A DNA stretch of 35,976 nt from Myxococcaceae bacterium (GCA_036489275.1 DASXGF010000271.1:1-35976); one strand, 5' to 3'; counted from the first letter of the stretch, positions 4,373 through 35,901 are shown. Numbers and translations: made by a program. The notes: a model not told the origin generated them from the sequence alone.

Positions 4373-5584
4373 CTATCCGCGCGCCGGCTCGATCCGCTCG
4401 CTGGTGGCAGGTGCAGATCGCTGGACGAGGAGCCCCGCCAGCGCACACGCGGCGCAGAACAGCGCCCACGCGCCCAGCTGCCCGCGGTCGATGAGGACCC
4501 CCGCGATCGCGGGCCCGAGGATCTGCGCCACCGATTGCAGGGACGTGTTCAGCCCCAGCACGACGCCCTGCTCGTTGCGGGCGACAGCCTGCGTCACGAG
4601 GCTGGTCAGTGCCGGGCGGAGGACGCCGGTGCCGACGGAGCTGAACAGACCCGCGACCAGAAGGAGCGGCAGCAGGTGGACGCCGGCGAGCAGCCCGTAG
4701 CCCACGGCCATCGACGCGAAGCCGGCGGCCACCAGCCAGTGCTCGCCGAAGCGTTTCACGAGACGCCCGAGGAAGCTCTGCACCAGGATGCCGAGGAGCC
4801 CGGCGTAGGCGAAGACGAAGCCCACTTCGCGGGCCTGGAAGGGGCGGCCATTCCAGGTGAGCCGCCGCTCGAGGAAGAGCGCCAGGCCGCCGGTGAACGC
4901 GGCGAAGGCCATCACGAAGCAGAAGAACTCCACCAGCAGTCGCGAGAGGCCTGGCCGCCGGAAGTACTGGAGGTACTCACCCCAGGCGAAGAGCGAGAGC
5001 CGCCGCCCTGCGGGTCCGGCCGGGCCCGCCGCGGGCGCGGGCTTCGTCGCGGGGAGGAGGAAGATCGTCGCCAGGATGCTGACGGCCGAGAGGGCGGCCG
5101 AGAGGAGAATTGGAACCGCCAGCCCGAAGGGAGAGAGCATGCCCGAGATCGCTGGCCCGAGCAGGAAGCCAATCCCGAAGCTGATGCCGATCAGCGCAAA
5201 GGAGCGCGCGCGGTTCTCGGGCTCGGTGACGTCGGAGATGTATGCCTGGGCAAGGACCAGGTTGCCGGCGGTGAGCCCGTCGATGATCCGGGCCAGGTAC
5301 ACCAACCACAGGCTGCCCGCGCCGGCGAGGAGCAGGCGCGAGGCGAAGGTGCCCAGCTGCGAGACGATGAGCAGCGGCTTGCGCCCGGTGCGGTCACTCC
5401 ACCGGCCGAGGAACGGGCCGCTCAGGAGCTGACAGAACGCGTAGGTGGAGACGAGGAGCCCGACCGCGGTGGGGCTCGCCCCGAGCTTCTCCGCATAGAA
5501 CGGAAGCAGTGGAAGGATGATCGTCAGGCCGAGGATGTCGGCCAGGACGATGAGAAAGATGGGGAGGAGCGGCCGATCCTTCAC
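4373..5584 (-). CDS. MFS transporter (tetracycline/drug:H+ antiporter-like, 12 TM)
   Basis: Shows an MFS signature (GRWSDRTGRKPLL) and many TM segments. I prefer the GTG start at 5584, preceded by GAGGGGAG. The TTG at 5623 (start of the track ORF) has no usable spacing to its SD. Confidence 0.85.
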   Translation of the reverse strand: MKDRPLLPIFLIVLADILGLTIILPLLPFYAEKLGASPTAVGLLVSTYAFCQLLSGPFLGRWSDRTGRKPLLIVSQLGTFASRLLLAGAGSLWLVYLARIIDGLTAGNLVLAQAYISDVTEPENRARSFALIGISFGIGFLLGPAISGMLSPFGLAVPILLSAALSAVSILATIFLLPATKPAPAAGPAGPAGRRLSLFAWGEYLQYFRRPGLSRLLVEFFCFVMAFAAFTGGLALFLERRLTWNGRPFQAREVGFVFAYAGLLGILVQSFLGRLVKRFGEHWLVAAGFASMAVGYGLLAGVHLLPLLLVAGLFSSVGTGVLRPALTSLVTQAVARNEQGVVLGLNTSLQSVAQILGPAIAGVLIDRGQLGAWALFCAACALAGLLVQRSAPATSERIEPARG

Positions 5585-5639
5585 GGGCGCTCCCCTCAGA
5601 CCAGAAGTCGCCTCCTGCGGCAACCCTCGCTGCGTTTCT

Positions 5640-6155
5640 CTACGAACGCAGGGCCTGGATCGCGGCGTCGCTGAACTGCTGCAGATCGTCCGGCTGGCGG
5701 CTCGTGATCCAGTTGCCGTCCCGCACCACCGGCTCGTCCTTCACGTTGGCGCCGATCTGCCGCAGGTCCTCCTGGATGGTCTTCCAGGCGGTCATCGTGC
5801 GGCCCTTCACCAGGCGCGCGCTGATCAGCAGCTGCGGGCCGTGGCACACCGCGGCCACCGGCTTCTTCGTCGCGTCGAAGTCCCTCACGAACCGGACGAA
5901 GCGCTCGTCGGCCCGGAGCTTGTCGGGTGAGTGGCCGCCGGGAAGCAGCAGCTCGTCGTAGTCCTGCGGCTTCGCGTCGGCGATCGACTTGTTCGCCTTC
6001 ACGCTGACCTTGCCCTTGTCGCCCTTCAGCTCCTCGCCGGTCTCGCGTCCGATGATGTCGACCTCGAAGCCTTCGGCCTTCAGCCGGTCGTAGGGAATCT
6101 TGAGCTCGCTGTCCTCGAAGCCCTGTCCCAGCAGGATTGCAACCTTCTTGGCCAT
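5640..6155 (-). CDS. DJ-1/PfpI-family protease/deglycase
   Basis: MAKKVAILLGQGFEDSEL...LLLPGGHSPD...PVAAVCHGPQLL carries the nucleophile elbow Cys-His. GAGGAGG lies upstream of the ATG at 6155. Confidence 0.9.
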   Translation of the reverse strand: MAKKVAILLGQGFEDSELKIPYDRLKAEGFEVDIIGRETGEELKGDKGKVSVKANKSIADAKPQDYDELLLPGGHSPDKLRADERFVRFVRDFDATKKPVAAVCHGPQLLISARLVKGRTMTAWKTIQEDLRQIGANVKDEPVVRDGNWITSRQPDDLQQFSDAAIQALRS

Positions 6156-20537: not shown

Positions 20538-22490
20538 TCAGGAACCAGGTGCCGGCGGAGTGGGTCGGTAGTGCACGGTTGCCGCCTCTGGACCCCCGTC
20601 CGCAGGGACCAGGCGGCTGGACAGCCGGCGCCGGTCCACCAGGCACACCGTCCCGCCCTCCCGGCAGTAGTACAGCGCCACCGCGAAGGTCGCCTCCGAG
20701 GGCGTTCTGAGAGGAGAAATTCTCGTCCGGGCCCGCAGAACCGCCCCGGCGGAATCGAGCTTCACCGGAGCGCTCGCCCCGGCCACCGTCAGCTCGACGC
20801 GCTGGGGTGCTCCCGCCGTGAAGGTGTGGCCCTCCGGAAGACGTACCTCGAGCACCAGCTCGGACCCCGCCGATGCGACGGTCGCATCCTCGAGGTGCTG
20901 CAGAGGCAAGGCCCGCGTGGCGAGGACCGGACGCTCCGTCAGGCCGCGGACGGCCGGCGGGTCGACCCCGGTGAGCGCGAGGGGGGACAGCGCTCCGCTC
21001 GCCGGGTCGACGGTCACCAGCCGGTGGTGGTCCGTGTCGGCGACGACCAGCCGACCTCCGGCCAGGGTGAGCCCACCGGGCTGGCCCAGGCCCCTGGCCA
21101 CGGTGCTCACCTGGCCGTCGGCGAGCGACACCCGGCGCAGCGCTCCGTTGAAGGTGTCGGCGACGAAGAGCACGCCGCCCGCGAGCAGCACGCCCAGCGG
21201 GTGCTGGAAGCGCGCGCGGGCCAGCGCACCATCGCGCAGCCCGAAGTCGAAGAGCCCCTCGCCGGCGAGCGTCTTCACCGTTCCTGCGCCAGGGTCCACG
21301 CGGCGGATCGCGCTGGCCTCGCTGTCGGCGACGTAGAGCACCTTGCCGTCGGTGGCCAGCCCGGACGGCTGGGCGAAGGTGGCCTGGGCCAGAGGTCCAT
21401 CGTCGAGGCCCTCGCGCCCACTCCCCGCGCCCGCGGAGAGCGCTCCGCTCCGCACGTCCAGTCGAAAGAGCTGGTGCGAGCCGGCCATGGCAATCCACAG
21501 CGTGTCGTCGACGAAGACCACGTCCCATGGGCTGCGGAGCGCGGCGGTCCGTGCATCCGCCGCGGGCTGCACCGCCCCCTCGGCCGTCTTGCCGGTGCCG
21601 GCGATCGTCTCCACCCCGCCGGTTTTCAGATCTACCCGGCGCAGGGCGTGGTTTCCGGTATCGGCCACGTAGAGGGCGCCGTCGCGCTCGGCGAGCCCCT
21701 GCGGGTAGCGAAAGGACGCGGCCTCCGGCGTTCCGTCGGAGAAGCCCTCGAGGCCCGAGCCGACGGCGCGCACGAGCCGCCCCGACGCGTCGAGGAGGAG
21801 GATGCGGTGGTACCCGGAGTCGGCGACCGCGAGCCCGCCTCCGGCGAGCCCGAGGACCTTGCCCGGAAAGGCCAGCGGACCGGTGTCGCGGACCGCGGGC
21901 CGCTTGAACTCGGCAGGCCCCGAGGCCAGCGCTCCCCGCGCGCGACCGTCGTCCAGCGTGGCCTGCACCCAGGCAGTGAGCGTCGACAGCTCGGGCTCGC
22001 CTCGGAACCACCCCACCGCGTAGCCGCGCGCGTCCACCAGGACGGAGGTCGGCCAGCCGTGGATGGCGTACTGCTCCCAGATGACCATGTCGCCGTCGGT
22101 GGCCACCGGATGGTCGATGTGGTGCCGCGCCATGGCCTCGGCCACCGCCGAGACCTCCTTCTCCGCGTCGAACTTCCCGGAGTGGATGCCCACCACCTGG
22201 AAGGGCTGACCGCGGAACCGTTCCTCGAGCGCGTGGAGCACCGGGAGCGCGTGGAGGCAGTTCACGCAGCCCGAGGTCCAGAAGTCGAGCAGCACCACCC
22301 GCCCCTTGAGCGCTCCGCGGAAGAGGAGCGGCCGGTCCGTCCCGAGCCAGGTTCCCACCCGGTCGAGGTCGGGGGCACGCGGGTGCCCTTTGTCGAGGAG
22401 CGCACGGATGGACACCGAGGGCTCCTGGGCGTCGGGCGCGGCGGCGGGGGCGACAGCGAGGACGGCGAGCAGGGACAGCGAGGGAGACAC
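20538..22490 (-). CDS. Secreted thioredoxin-like domain + NHL-repeat beta-propeller protein (NHLRC2-like architecture)
   Basis: GTG at 22490 after GGAAGG. Signal peptide SPSLSLLAVLAVAPAAAP. Thioredoxin-like FWTSGCVNC. Repeated NHL-type units follow (P.G+A....LYVADTGNHALRRVD, VLYVADSEASAIRRVD, VLFVADTFNGALRRV, LVVADTDHHRLVTVD). Confidence 0.9.
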   Translation of the reverse strand: MSPSLSLLAVLAVAPAAAPDAQEPSVSIRALLDKGHPRAPDLDRVGTWLGTDRPLLFRGALKGRVVLLDFWTSGCVNCLHALPVLHALEERFRGQPFQVVGIHSGKFDAEKEVSAVAEAMARHHIDHPVATDGDMVIWEQYAIHGWPTSVLVDARGYAVGWFRGEPELSTLTAWVQATLDDGRARGALASGPAEFKRPAVRDTGPLAFPGKVLGLAGGGLAVADSGYHRILLLDASGRLVRAVGSGLEGFSDGTPEAASFRYPQGLAERDGALYVADTGNHALRRVDLKTGGVETIAGTGKTAEGAVQPAADARTAALRSPWDVVFVDDTLWIAMAGSHQLFRLDVRSGALSAGAGSGREGLDDGPLAQATFAQPSGLATDGKVLYVADSEASAIRRVDPGAGTVKTLAGEGLFDFGLRDGALARARFQHPLGVLLAGGVLFVADTFNGALRRVSLADGQVSTVARGLGQPGGLTLAGGRLVVADTDHHRLVTVDPASGALSPLALTGVDPPAVRGLTERPVLATRALPLQHLEDATVASAGSELVLEVRLPEGHTFTAGAPQRVELTVAGASAPVKLDSAGAVLRARTRISPLRTPSEATFAVALYYCREGGTVCLVDRRRLSSRLVPADGGPEAATVHYRPTPPAPGS

Positions 22491-22590
22491 GGGGCAGCCT
22501 TCCGGGGCAAGGACCTACCGGAGGTCTACGCGGCGCGCCACCGGTCGGTTTCGGGTCTAGCCCCTCAGAGCCGTGCTAGACCCCGCCGCC

Positions 22591-23427
22591 ATGCTGCTTC
22601 AAGGCAAGCGCATGCTCATCACGGGCGTGCTGACCCCCCAGTCGCTGGCCTACGGCATCGCCGAGCTGGCACAGCAAGAGGGCGCGGAGATCATCCTCAC
22701 CTCCTTCGGACGCGGCATGTCCCTGACCGAGCGCTCGGCGAAGCGGCTGAGCCCTGCACCCGAGGTCCTGGAGCTCGACGTCACCAATCCCGAGCACTTC
22801 ACCCGGCTCACCCAGACGCTGAAGGCCTCGGGCAAGCCGCTCCATGGCGTGCTGCACGCGGTGGCCTACGCCCCGGAGGACGCGCTCGGCGGCAACTTCC
22901 TCAACACCCCGTGGGAGAGCGTCGCGACCGCGTTTCGGGTCTCGACCTTCTCGCTGAAGGAGCTCGCCGCTGCTGTGGCCCCGGTGATGACCGAGGGCGG
23001 GAGCATCGTCGCGCTGGACTTCGACAACTCCAGGCAGGCCTGGCCGATCTACGACTGGAGGGGGGTGTGCAAGGCCGGGATGATCTCGGTGATGCGCTAT
23101 CTCGCCCGCGACCTGGGTCCGAAGAACATCCGGGTCAACGCGGTGGCCGCCGGCCCACTGGTCACCATCGCCGCCAAGGGAATTCCTGGGTTCAAGCAGC
23201 TCGCCGACACCTGGGTCCTCTCGGCGCCGTTGGGATGGAACGCGCGCGACCGACATCCGATGGTCGCCAAGACCGTCGTCGCGCTGCTGTCCGACTGGTT
23301 CCCGGGGACCACCGCCGAGGTGGTGCACGTGGACGGCGGGCGCCACGCCATCGGTTCGCCCCCGGTGGACATCATGGAGCGGATCACGGCCGTTCTTTCG
23401 GACGCCGAGGGCAGCTCGAAGGAGTGA
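22591..23427 (+). CDS. fabI: Enoyl-[ACP] reductase (NADH), InhA-type FabI
   Basis: ATG at 22591 (MLLQGKRMLITG...). SDR fold with Tyr/Lys in IYDWRGVCKAG. LDFDNSR and APLGWN...PVAKTVVALLSDWFPGTTAEVVHVDGG closely resemble mycobacterial InhA as I recall it. Confidence 0.9.
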   Translation: MLLQGKRMLITGVLTPQSLAYGIAELAQQEGAEIILTSFGRGMSLTERSAKRLSPAPEVLELDVTNPEHFTRLTQTLKASGKPLHGVLHAVAYAPEDALGGNFLNTPWESVATAFRVSTFSLKELAAAVAPVMTEGGSIVALDFDNSRQAWPIYDWRGVCKAGMISVMRYLARDLGPKNIRVNAVAAGPLVTIAAKGIPGFKQLADTWVLSAPLGWNARDRHPMVAKTVVALLSDWFPGTTAEVVHVDGGRHAIGSPPVDIMERITAVLSDAEGSSKE

Positions 23428-23439
23428 GCCTCGGGCTCA
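23425..23439. terminator. Palindrome spanning both stop codons of the convergent fabI and paralog-A genes
   Basis: TGAGCC-TCG-GGCTCA has 6-bp arms and a 3-nt loop. The TGA (23425-23427) and the TCA (23437-23439, a minus-strand stop) are the outer triplets. Confidence 0.25.
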
Positions 23440-25752
23440 GAACCGCTTCAGCGCCACGATGTCGTTGTTGAACGGGTCGACGTAGTAGACGTTGCCCTGG
23501 TCCACCCCGCCGATGAGCGACGAGTTCTGCGCGATGCGCGGATAGCGGTAGAGGAACCGCGGCGTCAGCCCCGGGCCGAAGTGGAGCACCACGTCGCCGA
23601 GCGTCGCGCTGTTGAGCAGCACGGTGAGGCTTCCGTCGGTGGCCGAGCGCACGTTCTCACCAAGGCGTGAAGTCGACGACCCGTAGACGTAGAGGCCGGG
23701 AACGCGCGCGGTGGCCACGGGCCCTGCTCCGTCGGGCAGATAGGCCTCGAAGGTGGTGTAGGGCGGGTCGTTGCGCATGGTGACGACCGCCCCGACCGCC
23801 GGGCCACCGCCGACGAAGTTCCCTCCCTGCAGCGCGCCCAGCACCAGCGGCTGGTTGGGCATGCTCAGCCCGGCCTTGACCAGGTAGCTGCCGGCGATGT
23901 TGCCGCTCGGGGCGACGTGCACGACCTCGTAGCTGATGACTCCGGCGCCACCGCTGCAGTCCATGGTCAGGCCGAGCACGAAGCTGCCGTCCACCACCGG
24001 GAGCAACCGGTTCACCGTCTGCACCGCGCAGGCACCGCCGCCGAGCGCCGGAGCGCCCTGGGGCTGCAGCACGAAGCTGGAGGCCGGGAAGCCGAAGAAG
24101 GTCCAGGCCGGACCGCAGAACGCTCCCACGTCGTTGGGCGAGAGGTAGGTGCGGACCGCGCCGAAGGCGCCGGCCGTCCCGCCGGGAGTGGGCGGGGCGA
24201 GGGCCAGGTTCGGGTTCGCGTTGTTGTTGGCGGCGTCGAGCACCAGCTTGCCCGTCGAGGGCTGCAGGCAGGCGACGGTGTGCGTCGCCGGTGCGCCATA
24301 GCAGCCGTTGAACGCGCCGCTCATGATGTCCGGGATGCACACGAGGTCGTCCATCCGGGCCAGCACGGGCCCGGCCACCGAGCCGTCGGGCTGCAGCGAG
24401 TCGAGGTTGAAGGGAACGGAGTAGCCAGACGCCGGACGGGACCCGTTGATGGGCTCGCCCATGGCGATGACGTCGCTGCCGATCCGCTGGTTCGGGTTCG
24501 GCCGGGTGAAGAGCACGTTGCCGTGTCCATCGAAGTCGGCGGCGACGAATCCGGCGTCCTGCGGGAAGGGAATGGTGCCGCCGTCCGGGATGACCAGCGC
24601 GTCGGCTGCGCCGATGACGATCCGGAATCCCGCGTCGAAGGGGACGCTCGCGTCGAGCGAACCCGCGTCAACTCCCCCATCCGGACCTGCATCGGTGCCC
24701 GAGTCGGGCGTTCCGCCCTCGCCACCGTTGCCGGCATCGGATCCAGCATCGTTGCTCGGACCGGTGCCCGCGTCGGGGTCCGGCAGCGGTCCCCCGGAGA
24801 CCACGATGCTGTTCGGGTCGAAGGGGACGTAGGTGCCGTCGGCCGCGCGGAAGAAGCCGGGCAGCCAGTCGGAGGTCGCGTTCACCGTGGTGCTCTTCGC
24901 CAGCGCCACCTGGATTCCGCGCGCGGTGGCCACGGGCTTGGCGGCGTCGATGGCGATCCGGCCGGGGACGATGCGGTCCCAGAGCACGCGGCTGAGGAGG
25001 ACGCCCTGCTCGAGGTGGCTCGCGTTCCCGTTGGTCGCCCGGGCGTCGACGGTGAGGCTGACCGACTGGTCCACCTCCACCAGGACCTCGAACGGGACGT
25101 TGAACGGGTCACCGGTGTAGTTGTCGATGCCCAGCCCCGGAGCCTTGAGGAAGGTCACGTCGTAGAGCGGCGAGCCGCCGTCCGGGTTGGCGCGCTGGAC
25201 GATGCCGTCCGCCTCGCGGCCGGCGAGCCTCACGGTCGGAGGCAGGAGCAGCGGCCGGTCACTGCCCACGGTCAGGTTGAGCTGCGAGAGCGGCGCCACG
25301 CGCTCGGGGAGAGCCGCCGACAGCGAGGCGGTGGTGGTGTCGAGGAGCACGTTGATCGACTTGGTGCTCACGTGCCCGAGCATGTCGACGCCGATGAAGG
25401 TCAGCTGGAGCTGGGCGACGCCCGAGTCGGCGACCCCGCTCGTCACCAGGGTGCAGCGGGTGAAGTCCACGACCCCCGTGTACGGCGGCACGTTCCAGGT
25501 GAAGACGCCGGTGCTCGGGGCGCCGCCGCAGGTCACGGTGACGGAAGCCACCCCGTTCACCGAGTCAGCCTGGAGGCTGACCGGCGCATTCAGCGGGATG
25601 GTCTGCCCGTCGAGCGGCGAGAGGATGGTGAGCGTCGGGCCGACTCCGCCGTCCGCCGGGACGTTGGGGAGCTCGAGGTCCCAGCACGCCGGAAGCGCCA
25701 GGCAGGCGGCGGCGAGCAGCACCTCCCGGTACCTCACCGTCAACACGGACAA
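23437..25752 (-). CDS. Large secreted/lipoprotein-like protein of unknown family (paralog A, ~771 aa)
   Basis: Preferred start is TTG at 25752, 7 nt after GGAGGG (alternative GTG at 25746), giving (M)SVLTVRYREVLLAAACLALPAC. Collinear homology to the N-terminal ~690 aa of the upstream gene, including 8 conserved Cys. Contains an acidic D/A/G-rich insert. Confidence 0.8.
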   Translation of the reverse strand: MSVLTVRYREVLLAAACLALPACWDLELPNVPADGGVGPTLTILSPLDGQTIPLNAPVSLQADSVNGVASVTVTCGGAPSTGVFTWNVPPYTGVVDFTRCTLVTSGVADSGVAQLQLTFIGVDMLGHVSTKSINVLLDTTTASLSAALPERVAPLSQLNLTVGSDRPLLLPPTVRLAGREADGIVQRANPDGGSPLYDVTFLKAPGLGIDNYTGDPFNVPFEVLVEVDQSVSLTVDARATNGNASHLEQGVLLSRVLWDRIVPGRIAIDAAKPVATARGIQVALAKSTTVNATSDWLPGFFRAADGTYVPFDPNSIVVSGGPLPDPDAGTGPSNDAGSDAGNGGEGGTPDSGTDAGPDGGVDAGSLDASVPFDAGFRIVIGAADALVIPDGGTIPFPQDAGFVAADFDGHGNVLFTRPNPNQRIGSDVIAMGEPINGSRPASGYSVPFNLDSLQPDGSVAGPVLARMDDLVCIPDIMSGAFNGCYGAPATHTVACLQPSTGKLVLDAANNNANPNLALAPPTPGGTAGAFGAVRTYLSPNDVGAFCGPAWTFFGFPASSFVLQPQGAPALGGGACAVQTVNRLLPVVDGSFVLGLTMDCSGGAGVISYEVVHVAPSGNIAGSYLVKAGLSMPNQPLVLGALQGGNFVGGGPAVGAVVTMRNDPPYTTFEAYLPDGAGPVATARVPGLYVYGSSTSRLGENVRSATDGSLTVLLNSATLGDVVLHFGPGLTPRFLYRYPRIAQNSSLIGGVDQGNVYYVDPFNNDIVALKRF

Positions 25753-25864
25753 AGGGCGACCCTCCACCGGCCAGACGCCGCACGAGGGTACCAGACCACC
25801 GACGGGGGCGGGGAAAAGGGAGCCGCCGCCGGGGTGGTCACGACGACCCCCTGGTGTGTGCGTC

Positions 25865-28800
25865 TCAGGGAGCGGTGCAGCCGAAGACGCCGCCACATCC
25901 GGTGGTCGATGCGTTGAAGGACTGCGCGCAGAGCGAATTCCCGGAGAAGGTGTTGCCCGCGGTGAGATCGGGCGCGTTGCTCGCCCCCGTCAGCCACATC
26001 GCCACGATGCCGTAGCCGGCGTTGAACCGGACGGTGCTGTTGGTGAGCAGGGTCGCCGGCGGGACGTACTGCGTCTCGAAGTCGCCCACCAGCAGGCCTC
26101 CCTGGTCCTGGGTCGCCGGGTCCTTGCAGTTGGCGGAGCTGATTCCGTTCACGCCTCCCGCGTACTCGACGACCACGTGGTCGAGCTGCGAGCCGGTCGC
26201 GGTGTCGAGCCACAGGCCCACCCAGTCGCCCGGGGCCGGCGCCGCCTCCCCGGAAGTGAAGAGGATGGGCGAAGTGGCCGTGCCCTGGGCCACGAGGATC
26301 CCGACGACGTTGTTCGGGGAATTCCCGTTGGAGCCGAAGGTGACCAGCGCGCCCGGCGTGGTTGCGTTCGCTTTCGGGAACAGCAAGCGCGAGCCGGCCT
26401 CGACGGTCAGCTTGACCGGGGTGGTGCTGGTCCCGGACGGGCGCACGCCGAACCCGGCGGTCTGGATCCGCACCGGCAGGTAGGGGTGGATGGTGGTGTC
26501 GATCGTGACGTTGAAGGTGCCGACCACGTTCACCATCGGTCGGCCATTGCTCGCGGACGCGTAGCTGCCCTGGGGAACCGTGCCGAGCGCCATCATCCCC
26601 ATGCTGAGCACGTAGTCCGGAGCGCCCTGGACGGTGAGATTGGTGGAGTCCGCGGTGAAGGCCCCGCCGGCGTCGAAGTAGACGCCTCCGCCCTGCGGAG
26701 TGTCGATGGTGACGTTCTTCACCCGGACGTTCCCGGCGGGCGGGGCCGCGGCGTAGCCGGCCCCCACTCCGACGATGGTCGAGTTGGAGTAGGTGCCTCC
26801 GAAGGCGCCGCCGCGCTGGAGCGTGGTCCACGTCAGATCGATGAGTGAGGTGTCGCTCGTCGCCCGCAGGATTCCCCACGGCTGCGCCGCGTTCACCGGG
26901 ACGAAGGAGATGGACCCGCCCGGACCCGTGCCGGCGGCGAGCAGCACCGCCCCGGCATTGACGTTGATGCTGACGCCCGAAGCCAGGGAGACGTAGGCGC
27001 AGGGCTGGATGGTCACCGTCGCGGGCGCGTTGATGGAGATGCTGTTCGGGACCGAGTGGGTGACTCCGTTGCCGGCCCAGGTCTCGCTGGCCCCGATGTT
27101 GGTCGCGTGGGTGACGACGGTGCCGCTGGGCGCAGCACAGCTGGCGGCGCCGGTGACCGTGACGGTGGTGCTTCCCGAGCGCGTGGGGTCGGCGACGCTG
27201 GTCGCGGTGAGGGTGTACGTCCCCGGAGTCGTGCTGGTGAAGCTCGCGCTGTTCCCGTTGGCCGTCAGCGTGCCTCCCGAAGGCGAGGCGCTCCAGGACA
27301 CCGCGCCAGAGCAGGTCCCGCTGGAGCTCACCGTGGCGGTGAGGCTCGACGTTCCGCCGGGGGCGAAGCTGCTCGGGGTCGCGGCCACGGAGACCCCGTT
27401 CACGACGCAGCCCGTTCCGCCGCCGCTGCTCCCGCCTCGCGTGTCGAGCGCGACCAGGACGTTGTTGAGCGGGTCGACGTAGTAGACGGACGTCTCGCCG
27501 TCGGCGGCGACCAGGGTGGAGCTCGTGGCGAGCAGCGGGTAGCGGTAGAGCCAGCGCGGCGTCAGCCCCGGCCCGAAGTGGAGCACCACGTCGCCGAAGG
27601 TCGCGCTGTTGAGCAGCACGGTGAGGCTTCCGTCCGCGCCGGCCGACACGTTGTGCCCGAGCCGGGGCACCGGCGCGAGGTAGACGTAGAGACCCGGGAC
27701 GCGGGCGGTGGCCGCGGGTCCGGTCCCGTCCGCAGGCCACGCCTCGAACACCGTGTTCGGAGGCTCGTTCCGCATCGTCACCACCTTGCCGTCGGCGAGC
27801 GCGCCGAGGACCAGCGGTGGGGCGGAGAGCGTCGGGTCGGGCAGGAAGACGCCCTGGGGCGCGAGGTAGCTGCCCGTGACATTGCCGCCGGCGCTCACCT
27901 TCACGACCTCCCATCCCATGCCGGTGGGACAGTCCACGTCGAAGAGGACCGCGTAGCTCCCGTCGGGGAAGGGGAGCAGCCGGTTCACCGGTCCGGAGCT
28001 CGCGGCGAAGCACCCGGTGCCGAACACCGCGTCCGCCGTGCGCGGCTGGGGCACGAAGACGTTTCCGGGCAGGGCGAGGAGCGCCCAGGCCGGGCCGCAG
28101 CTGCCGACGTCGTTGGGCGCGAGGTAGGTCCGCGCGGCCCCGTGCGCTCCGGCGGTGCCTCCGGGGGTGGGCGGGCCGAGCGGAGTCGTGGTGCTCGAGC
28201 CCACCGCGGTGGTCTGCGAGCCGTCGGCCAGCGAGAAGCAGCGGAGGGTCTGGGTGGCGGTGGGGATGGCGTACCAGCAGCCGTCCTCCGAGCCGGTGAA
28301 GGCGTCGGGGAGACAGAGCAGGTCGTCCACCCGGGTGAGCGTCTGGCCAAGCACGCCGCCGTCGACGAGCGGCGCCACCAGCGGGAACTGCACGGTGTAG
28401 CTCGCCGCGGCCCGGATGCCTCCCGAGGGCTCGGCGAGGGCGATGATGTCGCTGCCCCCGCGCTGGACGACGCTCGGCCGGGCCATCAGCACCCGCCCTT
28501 GCCCGTCGAGCTCGGTCGCGAAGTAGCCGGCGTCGGCAGGGAAGGGCGTTCCGGCATCGGCGGACACCGGTCCGGAGGGGAGCGACGGCCCCACGACGCG
28601 GACGTTCGGCGGATCGAACGGGACGTAGATCCCGTCCGGGGCGCGGAAGAAGCCGGGGAGCCAGGGCGCGGTCGCCCCGGGGACCGCGTCCTTGGTGGCG
28701 AGCGGTACCTGCACCCCGGCCGCGGTCGCCACCGGGTCGGCCGCGGAGATGGCGATGCGGCCCGGGACGGCGCGGTCCCAGAGCACGCGGCTGAGGAGCA

Positions 28801-29557
28801 CCCCTTGCTCGAGGTGGCTCGCGTTTCCGTTCGTGGCGCGCGCGTCGACGGTGAGGCTCACCGAGCGCTCGACGTCGGTGAGGACCTCGAACGGCACGGC
28901 GTAGGGATCGCCCGCATAGGTGTCGATGCCCAGACCCGGCGTCCGAAGGAAGGTGACGTCGTAGAGGGCCGCGCCGCCGTCGGGATTCGCCCGCTGCTGG
29001 ACGCCGTCCGCCTCGCGTCCGGCGAGCCTCACGGTCGGCGGGAGCAGCAATGGCCGGTCGCTGCCCACGGTGAGGTCGAGCTGGGCGAGCGGCACCACCC
29101 GCCCGGGGAGCACCGCCGAGAGCGCCGCGGTGGTGGTGTCGAGGAGCACGTTGAAGCTCTTCGTGCTCGCGCGCCCCTGGCGATCCACGGCGATGAAGGT
29201 GAGCTGCAGCTGTCCGAACCCGGCGTCGGTGGCGCCGTTGGTGACCAGGCTGCAGCGGGTGAAGTCGACCACGCCGGTGTACGGCGGAACGTTCCAGGTG
29301 AAGACGCCGGTGCTCGGCGCTCCGCCGCAGGTCACCGTCACCGCGGCGACCCCGTGCACCGAGATGGCCTCGATGTTCACCGGCGCGTTCAGGGGGATCG
29401 TCTGTCCGTCGCGCGGCGCGACCACCGTCAGGTCTGGCCCGACGCCGCCGTCGGCCTGCACGTCGGGCAGCGCGAGGTCACGACAGGCCCCGAGCATCCC
29501 GGCCACGAGGCAGGGCGCGACCGCACGGAACCAACGCGTGGCCACGGTCACCGGCAC
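25865..29557 (-). CDS. Large lipoprotein-like protein of unknown family with C-terminal Ig-like (Big_2-like) + right-handed beta-helix-like extension (paralog B, 1230 aa)
   Basis: GTG at 29557. Signal/lipobox ...CLVAGMLGAC. Residues ~1-700 are paralogous to gene A. A G/S linker is followed by VSVAATPSSFAPGGTSSLTATV...TYTLTATSVADPTRSGSTTVTVT (Ig-like). Repetitive beta-helix-like turns follow, and the protein ends in a Cys-rich tail. Confidence 0.85.
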   Translation of the reverse strand: MPVTVATRWFRAVAPCLVAGMLGACRDLALPDVQADGGVGPDLTVVAPRDGQTIPLNAPVNIEAISVHGVAAVTVTCGGAPSTGVFTWNVPPYTGVVDFTRCSLVTNGATDAGFGQLQLTFIAVDRQGRASTKSFNVLLDTTTAALSAVLPGRVVPLAQLDLTVGSDRPLLLPPTVRLAGREADGVQQRANPDGGAALYDVTFLRTPGLGIDTYAGDPYAVPFEVLTDVERSVSLTVDARATNGNASHLEQGVLLSRVLWDRAVPGRIAISAADPVATAAGVQVPLATKDAVPGATAPWLPGFFRAPDGIYVPFDPPNVRVVGPSLPSGPVSADAGTPFPADAGYFATELDGQGRVLMARPSVVQRGGSDIIALAEPSGGIRAAASYTVQFPLVAPLVDGGVLGQTLTRVDDLLCLPDAFTGSEDGCWYAIPTATQTLRCFSLADGSQTTAVGSSTTTPLGPPTPGGTAGAHGAARTYLAPNDVGSCGPAWALLALPGNVFVPQPRTADAVFGTGCFAASSGPVNRLLPFPDGSYAVLFDVDCPTGMGWEVVKVSAGGNVTGSYLAPQGVFLPDPTLSAPPLVLGALADGKVVTMRNEPPNTVFEAWPADGTGPAATARVPGLYVYLAPVPRLGHNVSAGADGSLTVLLNSATFGDVVLHFGPGLTPRWLYRYPLLATSSTLVAADGETSVYYVDPLNNVLVALDTRGGSSGGGTGCVVNGVSVAATPSSFAPGGTSSLTATVSSSGTCSGAVSWSASPSGGTLTANGNSASFTSTTPGTYTLTATSVADPTRSGSTTVTVTGAASCAAPSGTVVTHATNIGASETWAGNGVTHSVPNSISINAPATVTIQPCAYVSLASGVSINVNAGAVLLAAGTGPGGSISFVPVNAAQPWGILRATSDTSLIDLTWTTLQRGGAFGGTYSNSTIVGVGAGYAAAPPAGNVRVKNVTIDTPQGGGVYFDAGGAFTADSTNLTVQGAPDYVLSMGMMALGTVPQGSYASASNGRPMVNVVGTFNVTIDTTIHPYLPVRIQTAGFGVRPSGTSTTPVKLTVEAGSRLLFPKANATTPGALVTFGSNGNSPNNVVGILVAQGTATSPILFTSGEAAPAPGDWVGLWLDTATGSQLDHVVVEYAGGVNGISSANCKDPATQDQGGLLVGDFETQYVPPATLLTNSTVRFNAGYGIVAMWLTGASNAPDLTAGNTFSGNSLCAQSFNASTTGCGGVFGCTAP

Positions 29558-29683
29558 CCCCTGCTTCGACCGCGTGGAACGAGCTTACCGGCCGTCGCCT
29601 GCGGAGGGTGAGGAAAGGTGCCCGGTCAAAGGGGACCCTGGGGATCGCTTCATCCAATGTGGCTTCCAGAGGAGAGCTGCGCC

Positions 29684-30892
29684 ATGCTCGCTGGCGCCGG
29701 ACGGCGCTCCACGAGGGGGTTGACCGTGACGTCGCTTCGCGTGGCAGTGCTGCTTGCCGTCACCGCCGCGGGCGTGGCCTCCGCGGCGGATCAGCGTCCC
29801 AACCTCCTGGTGCTGGACCTCGAGCCGCGCGGCGTGGGTCTGCCCGAGGCTCAGGCGGCGACGGGCAGCGTCGTGCGCGGCCTGCGCCAGCTCGAGGTGT
29901 TCCAGGTCCTCAGCTCGGACGACGTCCGGCAACTGCTCGCGCTCGAGCGCACCCGGCAGCTCTCCGGCGCGCGCGCCGAGAGCAGCGTCGGTCAGCTCGG
30001 TGCGGCGCTCAACGCGCAGAACGCCGTCGTGGGCAGCGTCACCCGCGTGGGTGGCAAGCTGCAGGTGGAGATCCGACTCCTCGATGCGACGACGCAGAAG
30101 GTGCTCTCCCAGAAGAGCCTGAACCAGGCCACCATCGAGCAGGTGGCGACCCAGCTCCCCGGTCTCTCCCAGGAGCTGATGGCGCCGCTGCTACGCGAGC
30201 AGCAGGGCTTCCTAGTGGTGAAGTCGAAGGAGGAGGCCGCCGAGGTCCTGGTCGACGACACGCTGGTGGGGAGCATTCCGTTGAAGGGCTCGATCGACCT
30301 GTCGCGCGGCGTCCACCGCCTCACCGTGCGCAAGGACGGGTTCATCGCCCAGACTCGCTCGGTCCGCGTCGAGCCGAAGCAGACCACCGTCGAGGAGGTC
30401 GAGCTCCAGCCCTCGGCCGACTACGCGAAGATCTACAAGGACAAGTACGGAAAGATCCGGGTCGGGGCGTGGATCGCCACCGGCGTGGCCATCGCCGGAA
30501 TCACCACCGCGATCGTCATGAACGCCTCGGCGAACAGCCAGTACAACGACGAGTTCAAGCCGCGACAGGCGTGGCTCCAGGGAGCCGCCGGCACCGGGCC
30601 GCAGACCAAGCCCCCAGACATCGCCAACAACCCCACGGCCAGCGCCGCCTGGGACAGCTGCACCGCGAGCGGCGCCGTCGCCTGCAAGCAGGCCGCGGAG
30701 GACGCCAAGAGCAGCGTGCAGGTGAAGCAGTACGTGGCCATCGGTACCGCGGTGGTCGGTGTCGCCTCCGCCGGCGTCGCCACCTGGCTCTGGCTCAGCG
30801 GCAAGGACCCGAACCGCTACGCCGACGTCGTGGCGGGCGTGAGCCCGAATCCCCAGGGCGGGATGACGGTCGCGTTCGCCGGCCGGTTCTGA
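29684..30892 (+). CDS. PEGA-domain membrane protein with LpoB/CsgG-like N-terminal domain and two C-terminal TM helices
   Basis: ATG at 29684. Signal peptide LRVAVLLAVTAAGVASA. The segment NLLVLDLEPRGV...VFQVLSSDDVRQLL...LGAALNAQNAVVGSVTRVGGKLQVEIRLLD is typical of that N-terminal fold. PEGA module: VLVDDTLVGSIPLKGSIDLSRGVHRLTVRKDGF. TM helices: VGAWIATGVAIAGITTAIV and VAIGTAVVGVASAGVATWLWL. Confidence 0.85.
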   Translation: MLAGAGRRSTRGLTVTSLRVAVLLAVTAAGVASAADQRPNLLVLDLEPRGVGLPEAQAATGSVVRGLRQLEVFQVLSSDDVRQLLALERTRQLSGARAESSVGQLGAALNAQNAVVGSVTRVGGKLQVEIRLLDATTQKVLSQKSLNQATIEQVATQLPGLSQELMAPLLREQQGFLVVKSKEEAAEVLVDDTLVGSIPLKGSIDLSRGVHRLTVRKDGFIAQTRSVRVEPKQTTVEEVELQPSADYAKIYKDKYGKIRVGAWIATGVAIAGITTAIVMNASANSQYNDEFKPRQAWLQGAAGTGPQTKPPDIANNPTASAAWDSCTASGAVACKQAAEDAKSSVQVKQYVAIGTAVVGVASAGVATWLWLSGKDPNRYADVVAGVSPNPQGGMTVAFAGRF

Positions 30893-30998: not shown

Positions 30999-31027
30999 TT
31001 GCCCGGATGCCAGGTGGAGGCTAGTGT
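30999..31027 (+). promoter_or_regulatory. Candidate sigma70-type promoter giving a (near-)leaderless transcript of the small ORF
   Basis: TTGCCC (30999-31004), 17-nt spacer, TAGTGT (31022-31027). The ATG at 31037 lies only 9 nt after the -10 element, and no SD is present. Confidence 0.3.
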
Positions 31028-31036
31028 GGGACCTCG

Positions 31037-31234
31037 ATGCGGCTGTCCGAGCACGAGCCCCGGAAGAAGCGGCTGGAGGAGGAGCGTGGCGCCATGCTCG
31101 ATGCCTGGCCGCTACCGGCCCAGGCCGCGGTCCCCGAGGCGGACGAGCCCCTGGACCGCGCGGCCGAGGGCGACGACGAGCCCATCACCGAGAAGGTGCC
31201 GGCGACGCCCCCGCGAGAGCCCAGCCGGGGCTGA
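31037..31234 (+). CDS. Candidate small acidic, Pro/Glu-rich protein (65 aa)
   Basis: ATG at 31037, TGA at 31232-31234. By my count 61 of 65 third codon positions are G/C. The composition (E/D/K/P/L) is protein-like, unlike the S/R/G-rich antisense ORF that shares the same third positions. No recognisable domain. Confidence 0.45.
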   Translation: MRLSEHEPRKKRLEEERGAMLDAWPLPAQAAVPEADEPLDRAAEGDDEPITEKVPATPPREPSRG

Positions 31235-31248
31235 GCAGCCCCGCAGAG

Positions 31249-31398
31249 CTCGACCGCGGCCGCGCTGACTGCAGGCCGTTCGACGACACGCTGCGGACCC
31301 CGACTGCGGCCGCCCTCACTCGACCGCGGCCGCCCTGACCTCGCTGACTGCAGGCCGTTCGACGACACGCTGCGGACCCCGACTGCGGCCGCCCTGAC

Positions 31399-31400
<2 letters not shown>
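31249..31400. repeat. Tandem direct repeat: two perfect 54-bp copies (31263-31316 and 31342-31395) within a ~70-79-bp duplicated unit
   Basis: cgctgactgcaggccgttcgacgacacgctgcggaccccgactgcggccgccct occurs twice with identical sequence. ctcgaccgcggccgc is also duplicated (31249-31263 and 31319-31333). There are four copies of GCGGCCGC[G/C]CT[G/C]AC (31257, 31308, 31327, 31386), and the last abuts the clpA stop. Confidence 0.9.
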
Positions 31401-33687
<2,287 letters not shown>

Positions 33688-35310: not shown

Positions 35311-35745
35311 TCAGCGGGTCAGCTCGCGGGCCAGGAGCTGACCGGCCACGGCGAGCCCCGCCCGGGCGCGGGCCTTCCCCGCGTCGGTCTCCATCACCCG
35401 CCCGGCCGCGTCGCTCGCCGTCCCGGCCGCGAGATCGGCGAGCAGGAGGAACGCGCCGATCTCGGGCGTCACCGGCACGGAGCGTCCGGGACGGAGGGGC
35501 CGGTCGCGGAGGCTCTTCGCCACCTTCTCCAGAAGGCCTTCCTCGTCCAGCTTCTTCGTCCCGCCGAGCAGCGCGGCCCAGGTGGCGGCGAGGAGGTCGT
35601 CGAGGAGCGGGCCGGAGAGCGCCGAGGCGAGCCGGCTGGCCGCCTCGTCGTGGTCTAGCTGGTGCGCGTCGGCGAAGGTCGGAGCGAGCTTCGCGACCAC
35701 GATGGCGCGGGTGGCGAGGTGGGCGAGGCGAGCCGGGTACCGCAT
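35311..35745 (-). CDS. Hypothetical alpha-helical protein
   Basis: High-GC3 ORF with ATG at 35745 (MRYPARLAHL...) and an alternative GTG at 35796. No recognisable motif and no clear SD. Confidence 0.5.
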   Translation of the reverse strand: MRYPARLAHLATRAIVVAKLAPTFADAHQLDHDEAASRLASALSGPLLDDLLAATWAALLGGTKKLDEEGLLEKVAKSLRDRPLRPGRSVPVTPEIGAFLLLADLAAGTASDAAGRVMETDAGKARARAGLAVAGQLLARELTR

Positions 35746-35901
35746 GACGGAGTCTAGGATGCAGGGCGCACGGTGGCCGCGCAACGCCTCATCCACGCGC
35801 CGCGTGGGCCGTCGTGGCGAGGTTCCAGGCCGAGGCGCCCAGGAGGTGCCCGGGACGATTCTCTCGTTGCATCACCCCGAGGGAGGGCGGAACCTGAGCC
35901 G

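Follow-up and report, generated by a model that had tools for sequence, protein, structure and literature searches.

What does a tandem pair of large, cysteine-rich lipoprotein-type genes do next to a divergently oriented gene for a membrane protein? The question is raised by a stretch of 35,976 nucleotides from Myxococcaceae bacterium (GCA_036489275.1, DASXGF010000271.1:1-35976), referred to below, at its full length, as the window. Two paralogous genes, here called the short and the long paralog, lie in it together with a gene on the opposite strand whose product carries a PEGA domain. We tentatively favour the view that the paralogs are lipid-anchored envelope proteins that bind a ligand, probably a glycan, that their constrained pair of immunoglobulin (Ig)-like domains docks on the PEGA protein, and that the genes are co-regulated; our confidence in this combined reading is somewhat below even. 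The paralogs belong to a new, very narrow and unnamed family that is built from common folds and falls within a kind of system already known, the modular envelope lipoproteins with Ig and propeller domains.

The window region has a G+C content of ~70% and therefore contains many spurious open reading frames (ORFs); the gene order was built from ORFs with a coding-type codon-position GC profile. It reads sucB, sucA and a gene for an NHL/thioredoxin protein (all on the minus strand), fabI, short paralog, long paralog, PEGA gene, clpA, clpS and a FemAB-like gene. Both lipoprotein ORFs are on the minus strand and exhibit the coding-type profile, with a third-position GC content (GC3) of 0.90-0.93. 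The central genes and spacers are, with lengths in amino acids (aa) and base pairs (bp):

22573-23427, plus strand: fabI, flanking the trio
23437-25746, minus strand: short paralog, 769 aa plus stop (ORF open up to 25896); lipobox, Ig, Ig, beta-propeller
25747-25864, no strand: spacer of 118 bp between the paralogs, from the ORF boundaries
25865-29557, minus strand: long paralog, 1230 aa plus stop; lipobox, Ig, Ig, beta-propeller, PKD-like domain, beta-helix
29558-29725, no strand: divergent intergenic region of ~168 bp between the long paralog and the PEGA gene, containing the block GGTGAGGAAAGGTG-N-CCGGTCAA
29726-30892, plus strand: PEGA membrane protein gene, probably 388 aa, judged by homolog starts and lengths (alternative starts 29684 and 29618)
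31399-33687, minus strand: clpA, flanking the trio on the other side

The coordinates of fabI and clpA agree with the first-pass annotation, a reading of the sequence alone, which had placed the trio between these genes. Its length of 1230 aa for the long paralog stands; its 771 aa for the short one is corrected to 769 aa, the most likely start being GTG 25746 (GGAGG upstream; orthologs measure 720-770 aa). For the PEGA gene, the most likely start is GTG 29726 (GAGGGGG upstream; homologs begin with MTSLRVAV and have 386-390 aa), which sets the divergent spacer at ~168 bp in place of the 126 bp given before. No terminator-like site was detected in the 118-bp spacer by a promoter/terminator scan.

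Comparison of the paralogs by BLASTP gave 744 bits and 438/779 identities (56%) in a collinear alignment, as expected from the original description of two adjacent same-strand genes with a collinear common region; the C-terminal ~525 aa occur in the long gene only. The mature shared region contains eight cysteines (C77, C102, C415, C427, C440, C487, C516 and C543 in the numbering of the long paralog). They are kept in every sequence having the column in a 43-member alignment, and the motifs that had been quoted for eight equivalently placed cysteines are all present. The lipobox cysteine is kept in 41 of 42 sequences, and the extension of the long paralog has eight further cysteines that none of its orthologs has lost. 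With invariant cysteines in even number and a signal peptide in front of them, the proteins would fit the disulfide-bonded extracytoplasmic type.

Both paralogs begin with the lipobox-like N-termini noted at the outset, and an L-x-[AG]-C box is present in all 41 aligned members. Measured against the rule [LVI][ASTVI][GAS]C, the core of PROSITE PS51257, the N-terminus of the long paralog (...LVAGMLGAC) is canonical and that of the short paralog is not; its LPAC is the commonest box in the family (23/41 members). The two signal peptides are:

29483-29557, minus strand: signal peptide of the long paralog with the canonical lipobox LGA-C (Cys25), fitting the PS51257 core
25684-25746, minus strand: signal peptide of the short paralog with the non-canonical lipobox LPA-C (Cys21), from the family alignment

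These features support the prediction that both genes encode exported, cysteine-conserved paralogs of the lipoprotein type.

An AlphaFold2 model of the mature long protein was calculated from 68 sequences, with a mean predicted local distance difference test score (pLDDT) of 78.8. In mature numbering, two beta-sandwiches at residues 11-108 and 115-225 (pLDDT 80-92) are followed by a poorly ordered connector, an all-beta domain at 270-674, a Gly/Ser linker, a further sandwich at 687-770 and finally ~370 residues of short, regularly spaced strands. Modelling of aa 301-705 alone resulted in a pLDDT of 84.6 and a predicted template modelling score of 0.85. The top 50 PDB matches of this domain model in Foldseek were almost all beta-propeller domains, mostly seven-bladed, with probability 1.0 and E about 1e-5. 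Among them are the clathrin terminal domain, the methylamine dehydrogenase heavy chain, the sugar-binding PLL lectins of Photorhabdus and YncE, as well as prolyl-oligopeptidase-type propellers, galactose oxidase and a fungal rhamnose-glucuronate lyase. The two Ig-like sandwiches and the beta-rich remainder of the first-pass annotation are in agreement with the models, which resolve the remainder as a ~7-bladed beta-propeller. The shared domains are:

28778-29464, minus strand: the two Ig-like domains of the long paralog (aa ~32-260), C77/C102 being an invariant pair in Ig1, from AlphaFold2
27443-28663, minus strand: beta-propeller of the long paralog (aa ~299-705), ~7 blades and six invariant cysteines, from the AlphaFold2 domain model and Foldseek
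24979-25665, minus strand: Ig-like pair of the short paralog (aa ~28-256), its most constrained part, from alignment to the long-paralog model and a ratio of non-synonymous to synonymous substitution rates (dN/dS) of 0.09-0.25
23440-24864, minus strand: beta-propeller of the short paralog (aa ~295-769), by homology to the long-paralog domain model

The propeller of the short paralog contains an Asp/Gly/Pro-rich insertion (24562-24795), which is absent from the long paralog. Sequence searches of Pfam, NCBIfam and the PDB returned nothing above threshold for the shared region. The Pfam Big_7 cut-off of 24.1 bits was missed by the short paralog (22.2) and by the N-terminal fragment of the long one (16), although the Ig region folds as a beta-sandwich in AlphaFold2. 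The propeller (aa 301-705) had no Pfam match even at E 10, and neither Pfam nor NCBIfam revealed an NHL, SGL, PD40/TolB, PQQ, Kelch, WD40 or BNR repeat in it. A Foldseek search with the whole model against the PDB and BFVD yielded generic Ig arrays only (TM-score <0.2) and was uninformative for the propeller and the beta-helix. The shared region had initially been proposed to lie outside any characterised family, and the profile and structure searches (Pfam, NCBIfam, PDB, Foldseek) gave no placement for it. The propeller fold can be regarded as settled by the models, and no specific family is assigned to it by structure or sequence.

The extension of the long paralog consists of two parts:

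27143-27415, minus strand: PKD/Big_2-like Ig domain (aa ~715-805), from a profile match and AlphaFold2 strands at 687-770
25868-27142, minus strand: right-handed beta-helix module, Pfam Beta_helix_4 PF28492 (aa 806-1230), with conserved cysteines, from AlphaFold2 and the Pfam matches of relatives

By profile, the PKD-like domain matches the Ig-like domain of the beta-1,3-glucanase BglH (7quz, E 2e-8). PKD is found at E <=0.01 in 13 of 40 module homologs; the window protein itself stays below the Pfam PKD cut-off (12.4 vs 23.5 bits). The module behind it is modelled as short periodic strands with a pLDDT of 80-96, which fits a beta-helix. Its assignment was made via relatives, since precomputed PF28492 matches are available for orthologs with 73-83% and for stand-alone homologs with 48-78% identity; the name Beta_helix_4 comes from a match marked weak, and the older Beta_helix family PF13229 gave weak matches only. 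These 425 aa share 48-58% identity with over 200 clusters of hypothetical proteins of ~470-570 aa, found in Burkholderiaceae, Gemmatimonadota and Myxococcaceae metagenome-assembled genomes (MAGs). The stand-alone proteins, predicted lipoproteins with their own N-terminal Cys-containing leader, resemble the C-terminal 525 aa of the long paralog in the PKD-like domain, the beta-helix and the conserved cysteines, and differ from the long paralog in lacking the Ig-Ig-propeller base, a conserved neighbourhood and a PEGA partner. At three loci encoding them (L025-L027), the neighbourhoods share no common genes and give no functional hint. As the extension is a separate unit that occurs as stand-alone proteins, the long paralog is best described as the family base fused to a widespread PKD + beta-helix unit. 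The cross-phylum identity of this unit (25868-27415, minus strand) is unusually high for a hypothetical protein, which suggests an enzyme or horizontal transfer.

How large is the family, and how variable? A word-indexed search returned 66 clusters, all metagenomic, of which the few named ones are 'Myxococcaceae bacterium'. An exhaustive hidden Markov model search with the shared-region profile through 1.84 billion cluster representatives found 114 proteins at E <=1e-3 (64 at <=1e-30), and a scan of 185,579 species genomes revealed 20 loci in ~13 uncultured Myxococcaceae/Myxococcota MAGs. Most members have the base only (610-770 aa); longer ones end in PKD+Beta_helix_4, CarboxypepD_reg+NHL/SGL, He_PIG, Big_2+PKD or four Big_7 domains plus BNR_4. 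Judged by these architectures, the base of the family is fixed and its heads are exchangeable. Literature searches turned up no account of the family or of Beta_helix_4, nor any of myxobacterial PEGA proteins.

When the window was compared gene by gene with related MAGs, identities were 94-98% for clpA, 88-92% for fabI, 79-93% for PEGA, 76-83% for the long base (aa 1-705), 62-78% for the beta-helix extension and 56-82% for the short paralog; the family genes thus change faster than those around them. Against orthologs, dN/dS amounted to 0.09-0.25 in the Ig pair and 0.18-0.67 in the propeller. Both paralogs are thus real genes and subject to purifying selection; constraint becomes weaker from the N- to the C-terminus. 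Between the two paralogs of the window, dS is 0.64 in the Ig pair and 0.70 in the propeller, and dN is 0.126 vs 0.369. Gene conversion as the origin of the near-identical N-termini was ruled out on these values: dS is equal in both parts while dN differs threefold, and the near-identical blocks therefore reflect selection.

TraA and SitA are recognition and toxin-delivery lipoproteins of cultured myxobacteria. The window family is confined to one lineage and present in several copies, its distal part evolves faster and its C-terminal modules can be swapped, so that its members could be polymorphic lipoproteins for cell-cell recognition or toxin delivery whose variable C-termini set specificity. 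We judge this to be very improbable, given that neither the sequences nor the Pfam/NCBIfam scans contain a toxin, PA14 or MYXO-CTERM-type feature, that no small immunity-like gene follows either paralog, that dN/dS stays below 1, and that the C-terminal modules are carbohydrate-type folds (beta-helix, NHL, BNR).

The genetic association of both partners is among the arguments for the reading favoured here, lipid-anchored binding proteins that dock on the PEGA protein. The clade of the window has a conserved backbone of FemAB-like, clpS, clpA, PEGA, slot, fabI, NHL/thioredoxin and sucA. The slot is occupied by one short-type gene in L001/L014, L011, L013 and L015 and by two genes in the window, L005 and L007-L010; in L002/L003, both copies are without extension. 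An extra family copy is located on the clpA side of PEGA in L012/L048, L043 and L046 (at 5398-7353 in L012). The accessory slot between housekeeping genes that had been suggested for the window is therefore variable, with 0-3 copies across loci. In one MAG (L001/L014, 7132-8190), a DDE_Tnp_1 transposase separates clpA from PEGA.

To follow the pairing further, metagenomes were scanned with the PEGA profile, and pairing was judged only at loci with enough flank. In the class with at least 73% PEGA identity, a family gene is divergent and adjacent at every such locus. The divergent pair is also present at four loci of a class with ~51% PEGA identity (L029/L065, L066, L067 and L076), and where flanks are available (L065, L076) the backbone differs from that of the window. 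The partner in L029 is 653 aa long, lies ~100 bp from PEGA and matches the family profile with an hhalign probability of 100 (E 1.5e-46, 32% identity), lipobox and Cys motifs included; TonB_C, PHP and Lactamase_B genes follow downstream, and neither fabI nor clpA is found. The TonB_C-domain gene comes directly after PEGA on the same strand (L029 9251-9979, plus strand), and a Pel9A-like beta-helix protein and an 862-aa unknown protein are encoded upstream of the lipoprotein.

Alignment of the divergent spacer across 15 loci revealed two conserved blocks, GGTGAGGAAAGGTG-N-CCGGTCAA and GTTCTGTACAGTTTCG. The former is located at about 29606-29632 in the window. A promoter/terminator scan and Rfam gave nothing for the spacers, and a candidate covarying hairpin was rejected, as only a 4-bp GGTC/GACC palindrome remained of it and compensatory changes were absent. 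The window is without about 26-31 bp containing GTTCTGTACAGTTTCG, which are present in its closest relative (L030:5817-6077; PEGA 98% identical). The difference may concern regulation or stem from the assembly.

The PEGA protein begins with a signal peptide ending in ASA, followed by a ~130-aa alpha/beta N-domain, and comprises:

~29801-30187, plus strand: N-domain with a weak, sub-threshold TolB_N/FlgO signal in Pfam
30212-30412, plus strand: PEGA domain (Pfam, residues 199-265)
30461-30520, plus strand: hydrophobic helix 1
30734-30796, plus strand: hydrophobic helix 2

The PEGA domain, which was originally defined from cell-surface proteins (PMC2447325), scores above the Pfam cut-off (28.6 vs 20.8 bits), and nearly all homologs carry PF08308. 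Two Gly/Ala-rich hydrophobic helices, present besides the signal peptide and in line with the two transmembrane helices assigned earlier, flank a ~70-aa loop with two invariant cysteines; the C-terminal part has an invariant DPNRY motif and an invariant C-terminal Phe. Under a simple topology with a periplasmic N-domain and two transmembrane helices, the loop (30521-30733, plus strand) would be cytoplasmic. The label 'LpoB/CsgG-like' was not borne out for the N-domain: Pfam contains no LpoB or CsgG match to the protein, and only sub-threshold matches at E 0.01-0.05 were obtained, namely FlgO (16.0 vs 22.6 bits), TolB_N (15.4 vs 22.4) and DUF3280 (14.3 vs 30.1). A search of the PDB with the PEGA-protein profile returned nothing relevant. 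PEGA proteins of a sister clade with 65-68% identity (P0122-P0147; L004, L056-L063) have an extra ~40-aa Ala/Pro-rich stretch after the signal peptide (columns 40-95 of the PEGA-protein alignment), which the pair-keeping clades do not have.

TolB combines a TolB_N alpha/beta domain with a six-bladed propeller and works together with lipoprotein and inner-membrane partners. In the gene pair described here, a TolB_N-like signal and a beta-propeller come together with a lipoprotein anchor and a membrane-embedded partner, which raises the idea of a 'split TolB', an envelope-maintenance device of the Tol-Pal/LpoB kind in which an inner-membrane TolB_N-like + PEGA protein and an outer-membrane propeller lipoprotein bridge or monitor the envelope. 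The weak TolB_N, FlgO and DUF3280 signals, the annotation of some homologs as 'TolB-like protein' by the Joint Genome Institute, the propeller in the partner, the high conservation of the PEGA protein and the TonB_C gene downstream of PEGA in L029 all point in this direction. We nevertheless hold it to be unlikely. All matches of the TolB_N type are sub-threshold, the elements are distributed over two proteins, and the propeller is ~7-bladed, Cys-rich and not specifically TolB-like, TolB being absent from its top 50 matches. An essential partner, moreover, would not vary between 0 and 3 copies, evolve so fast or carry swappable heads. No TolQ, TolR, TolA or Pal gene lies beside the pair, and a conventional TolB-like beta-propeller ORF of ~456 aa (about 4373-5740, minus strand) is found some 18 kb upstream, not adjacent.

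For lipid-anchored, ligand-binding paralogs docking on the PEGA protein, the following course of events can be pictured. An acylated cysteine, the constrained Ig pair and the faster-evolving ~7-bladed propeller would form one disulfide-stabilised scaffold, onto which interchangeable C-terminal modules are placed. The propeller and the C-terminal heads would bind a ligand of the envelope or the extracellular space, a polysaccharide being the most plausible candidate, and might also cleave it. A glycan-type ligand is suggested by the fold types (seven-bladed propellers including lectins, beta-helix, NHL, BNR) and by the PKD-like domain shared with a glucanase. Since the Ig pair is the most constrained part, it would contact a conserved partner, for which the divergently encoded PEGA protein is the obvious candidate, and it might thus be the part by which the lipoprotein docks on the periplasmic domains of this protein. 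Expression of both genes may be coordinated from the common spacer. The role of adhesin, matrix or predation/motility component suggested in the first-pass annotation is a guess. A bolder variant, which we consider improbable, is an undescribed two-protein trans-envelope 'socket and tool' device of uncultured Myxococcaceae for polysaccharide or prey envelope, in which the Ig pair would plug into the TolB_N-like/PEGA periplasmic part and exchangeable distal heads (propeller variants, beta-helix, NHL, BNR) would set the specificity for substrate or target.

Parts of this arrangement are found in known systems. SusE/F and the surface glycan-binding protein SGBP-B of Bacteroidota likewise present distal binding modules on a lipid anchor and an Ig-like stalk; SGBP-B (6e57) was among the Ig-array Foldseek matches of the whole model, with very low TM-scores. 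Unlike these, the distal module here is a propeller or beta-helix and not a sandwich resembling a carbohydrate-binding module, and no SusC/SusD or TonB-dependent transporter gene is present at the window locus (neighbours fabI, NHL/thioredoxin, sucAB, clpSA and FemAB-like). Seven-bladed propeller binders (PLL lectins, E. coli YncE, clathrin terminal domain, methylamine dehydrogenase heavy chain) have the overall fold of the shared C-domain, but no common sequence family or binding motif, and the six-Cys pattern is peculiar to the window family. In actinobacteria, the beta-propeller-type lipoprotein LpqB is encoded beside the membrane protein MtrB, which it modulates. LpqB-MtrB is similar in that a propeller lipoprotein is genetically paired with a membrane protein; it differs in phylum and shows no sequence relation, and the partner here is not a histidine kinase.

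Several observations weigh against the proposed binding and docking functions. The LALPAC box of the short paralog, with Pro at -2, fails PS51257, and no catalytic or ligand-binding motif was identified in the lipoproteins. The Foldseek matches of the propeller are generic (TM-scores 0.3-0.45, identity 7-14%), and the profile of the beta-helix module matched the PDB in its PKD/Big_2-like part only, with no relative of the beta-helix. The family is known only from uncultured Myxococcaceae/Myxococcota MAGs, with no cultured carrier among the 1.84 billion representatives and 185,579 genomes. Conservation is far higher in the PEGA protein (88-93%) than in the lipoproteins (52-83%), a contrast that also fits a housekeeping protein merely adjoining a variable slot. 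In the sister clade with 65-68% PEGA identity (L004, L056-L063 and L068), the PEGA gene stands alone, and fabI is directly beside it without a family gene in L004, L056-L058, L060, L061 and L068; L028, a locus with ~50% PEGA identity, has no lipoprotein partner. Distant paralogs of 35-40% identity are encoded at unrelated loci without PEGA (L017-L024). Since family members without PEGA exist, any interaction is not obligatory. At least one genome, SMAG_U15085, has linked and unlinked copies together.

PEGA genes that stand alone beside fabI/clpA or at L028, together with the unlinked paralogs, speak for a simpler explanation, according to which the lipoproteins act alone as surface or secreted binders or degraders of polysaccharide or prey material and PEGA is an uncoupled neighbour of a recombination-prone slot. 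The 1-3 copies within the slot, the insertion sequence element between clpA and PEGA in L001 and the independent occurrence of the PKD+Beta_helix_4 unit in other phyla fit in with this, and we rate the explanation as rather unlikely, though the chief competitor of the favoured reading. Against it stands the divergent adjacency at ~51% PEGA and ~32% lipoprotein identity in a different backbone, as gene order seldom lasts to such divergence without selection, and the spacer between the genes holds conserved blocks. A stricter version derived from L004, with PEGA as a mere backbone gene and the lipoproteins as a late insertion, was dropped because the ~51% clade has the same divergent pair in another backbone. 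As the pair is present there and absent elsewhere, it is old, repeatedly retained and facultative. Of the syntenic three-gene module originally envisaged, the PEGA-lipoprotein pair recurs across divergent genomes and backbones, whereas a fixed trio and obligatory co-occurrence do not hold; the conserved unit is the pair, because the second (long) paralog is present in some genomes only.

Adjoining fabI, a protein of 650 aa with thioredoxin-like/redoxin and NHL-repeat parts is encoded at 20538-22490 (minus strand). It belongs to the backbone of most related MAGs, is absent from L007 and L012, and evolves fairly fast (64-87% identity). Two further ORFs, 31021-31368 (minus strand, 115 aa) and 35311-35871 (minus strand, 186 aa), have no Pfam or NCBIfam match; the former, downstream of clpA, is a putative gene.

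For an unnamed, narrow family from a soil lineage without a cultured member, the domain plan is now clear, and both the disulfide pattern and the genetic partner are conserved. If the pairing does not reflect a complex, the paralogs would be one more lineage-specific set of Ig/propeller lipoproteins, an unsurprising outcome in which the shared region still merits a family model for annotation. If it does, a function would come into view for a widespread, unstudied PEGA/TolB-like membrane protein, and the pair would show how relatives of the myxobacteria diversify their envelope tools by swapping heads on a fixed anchor.

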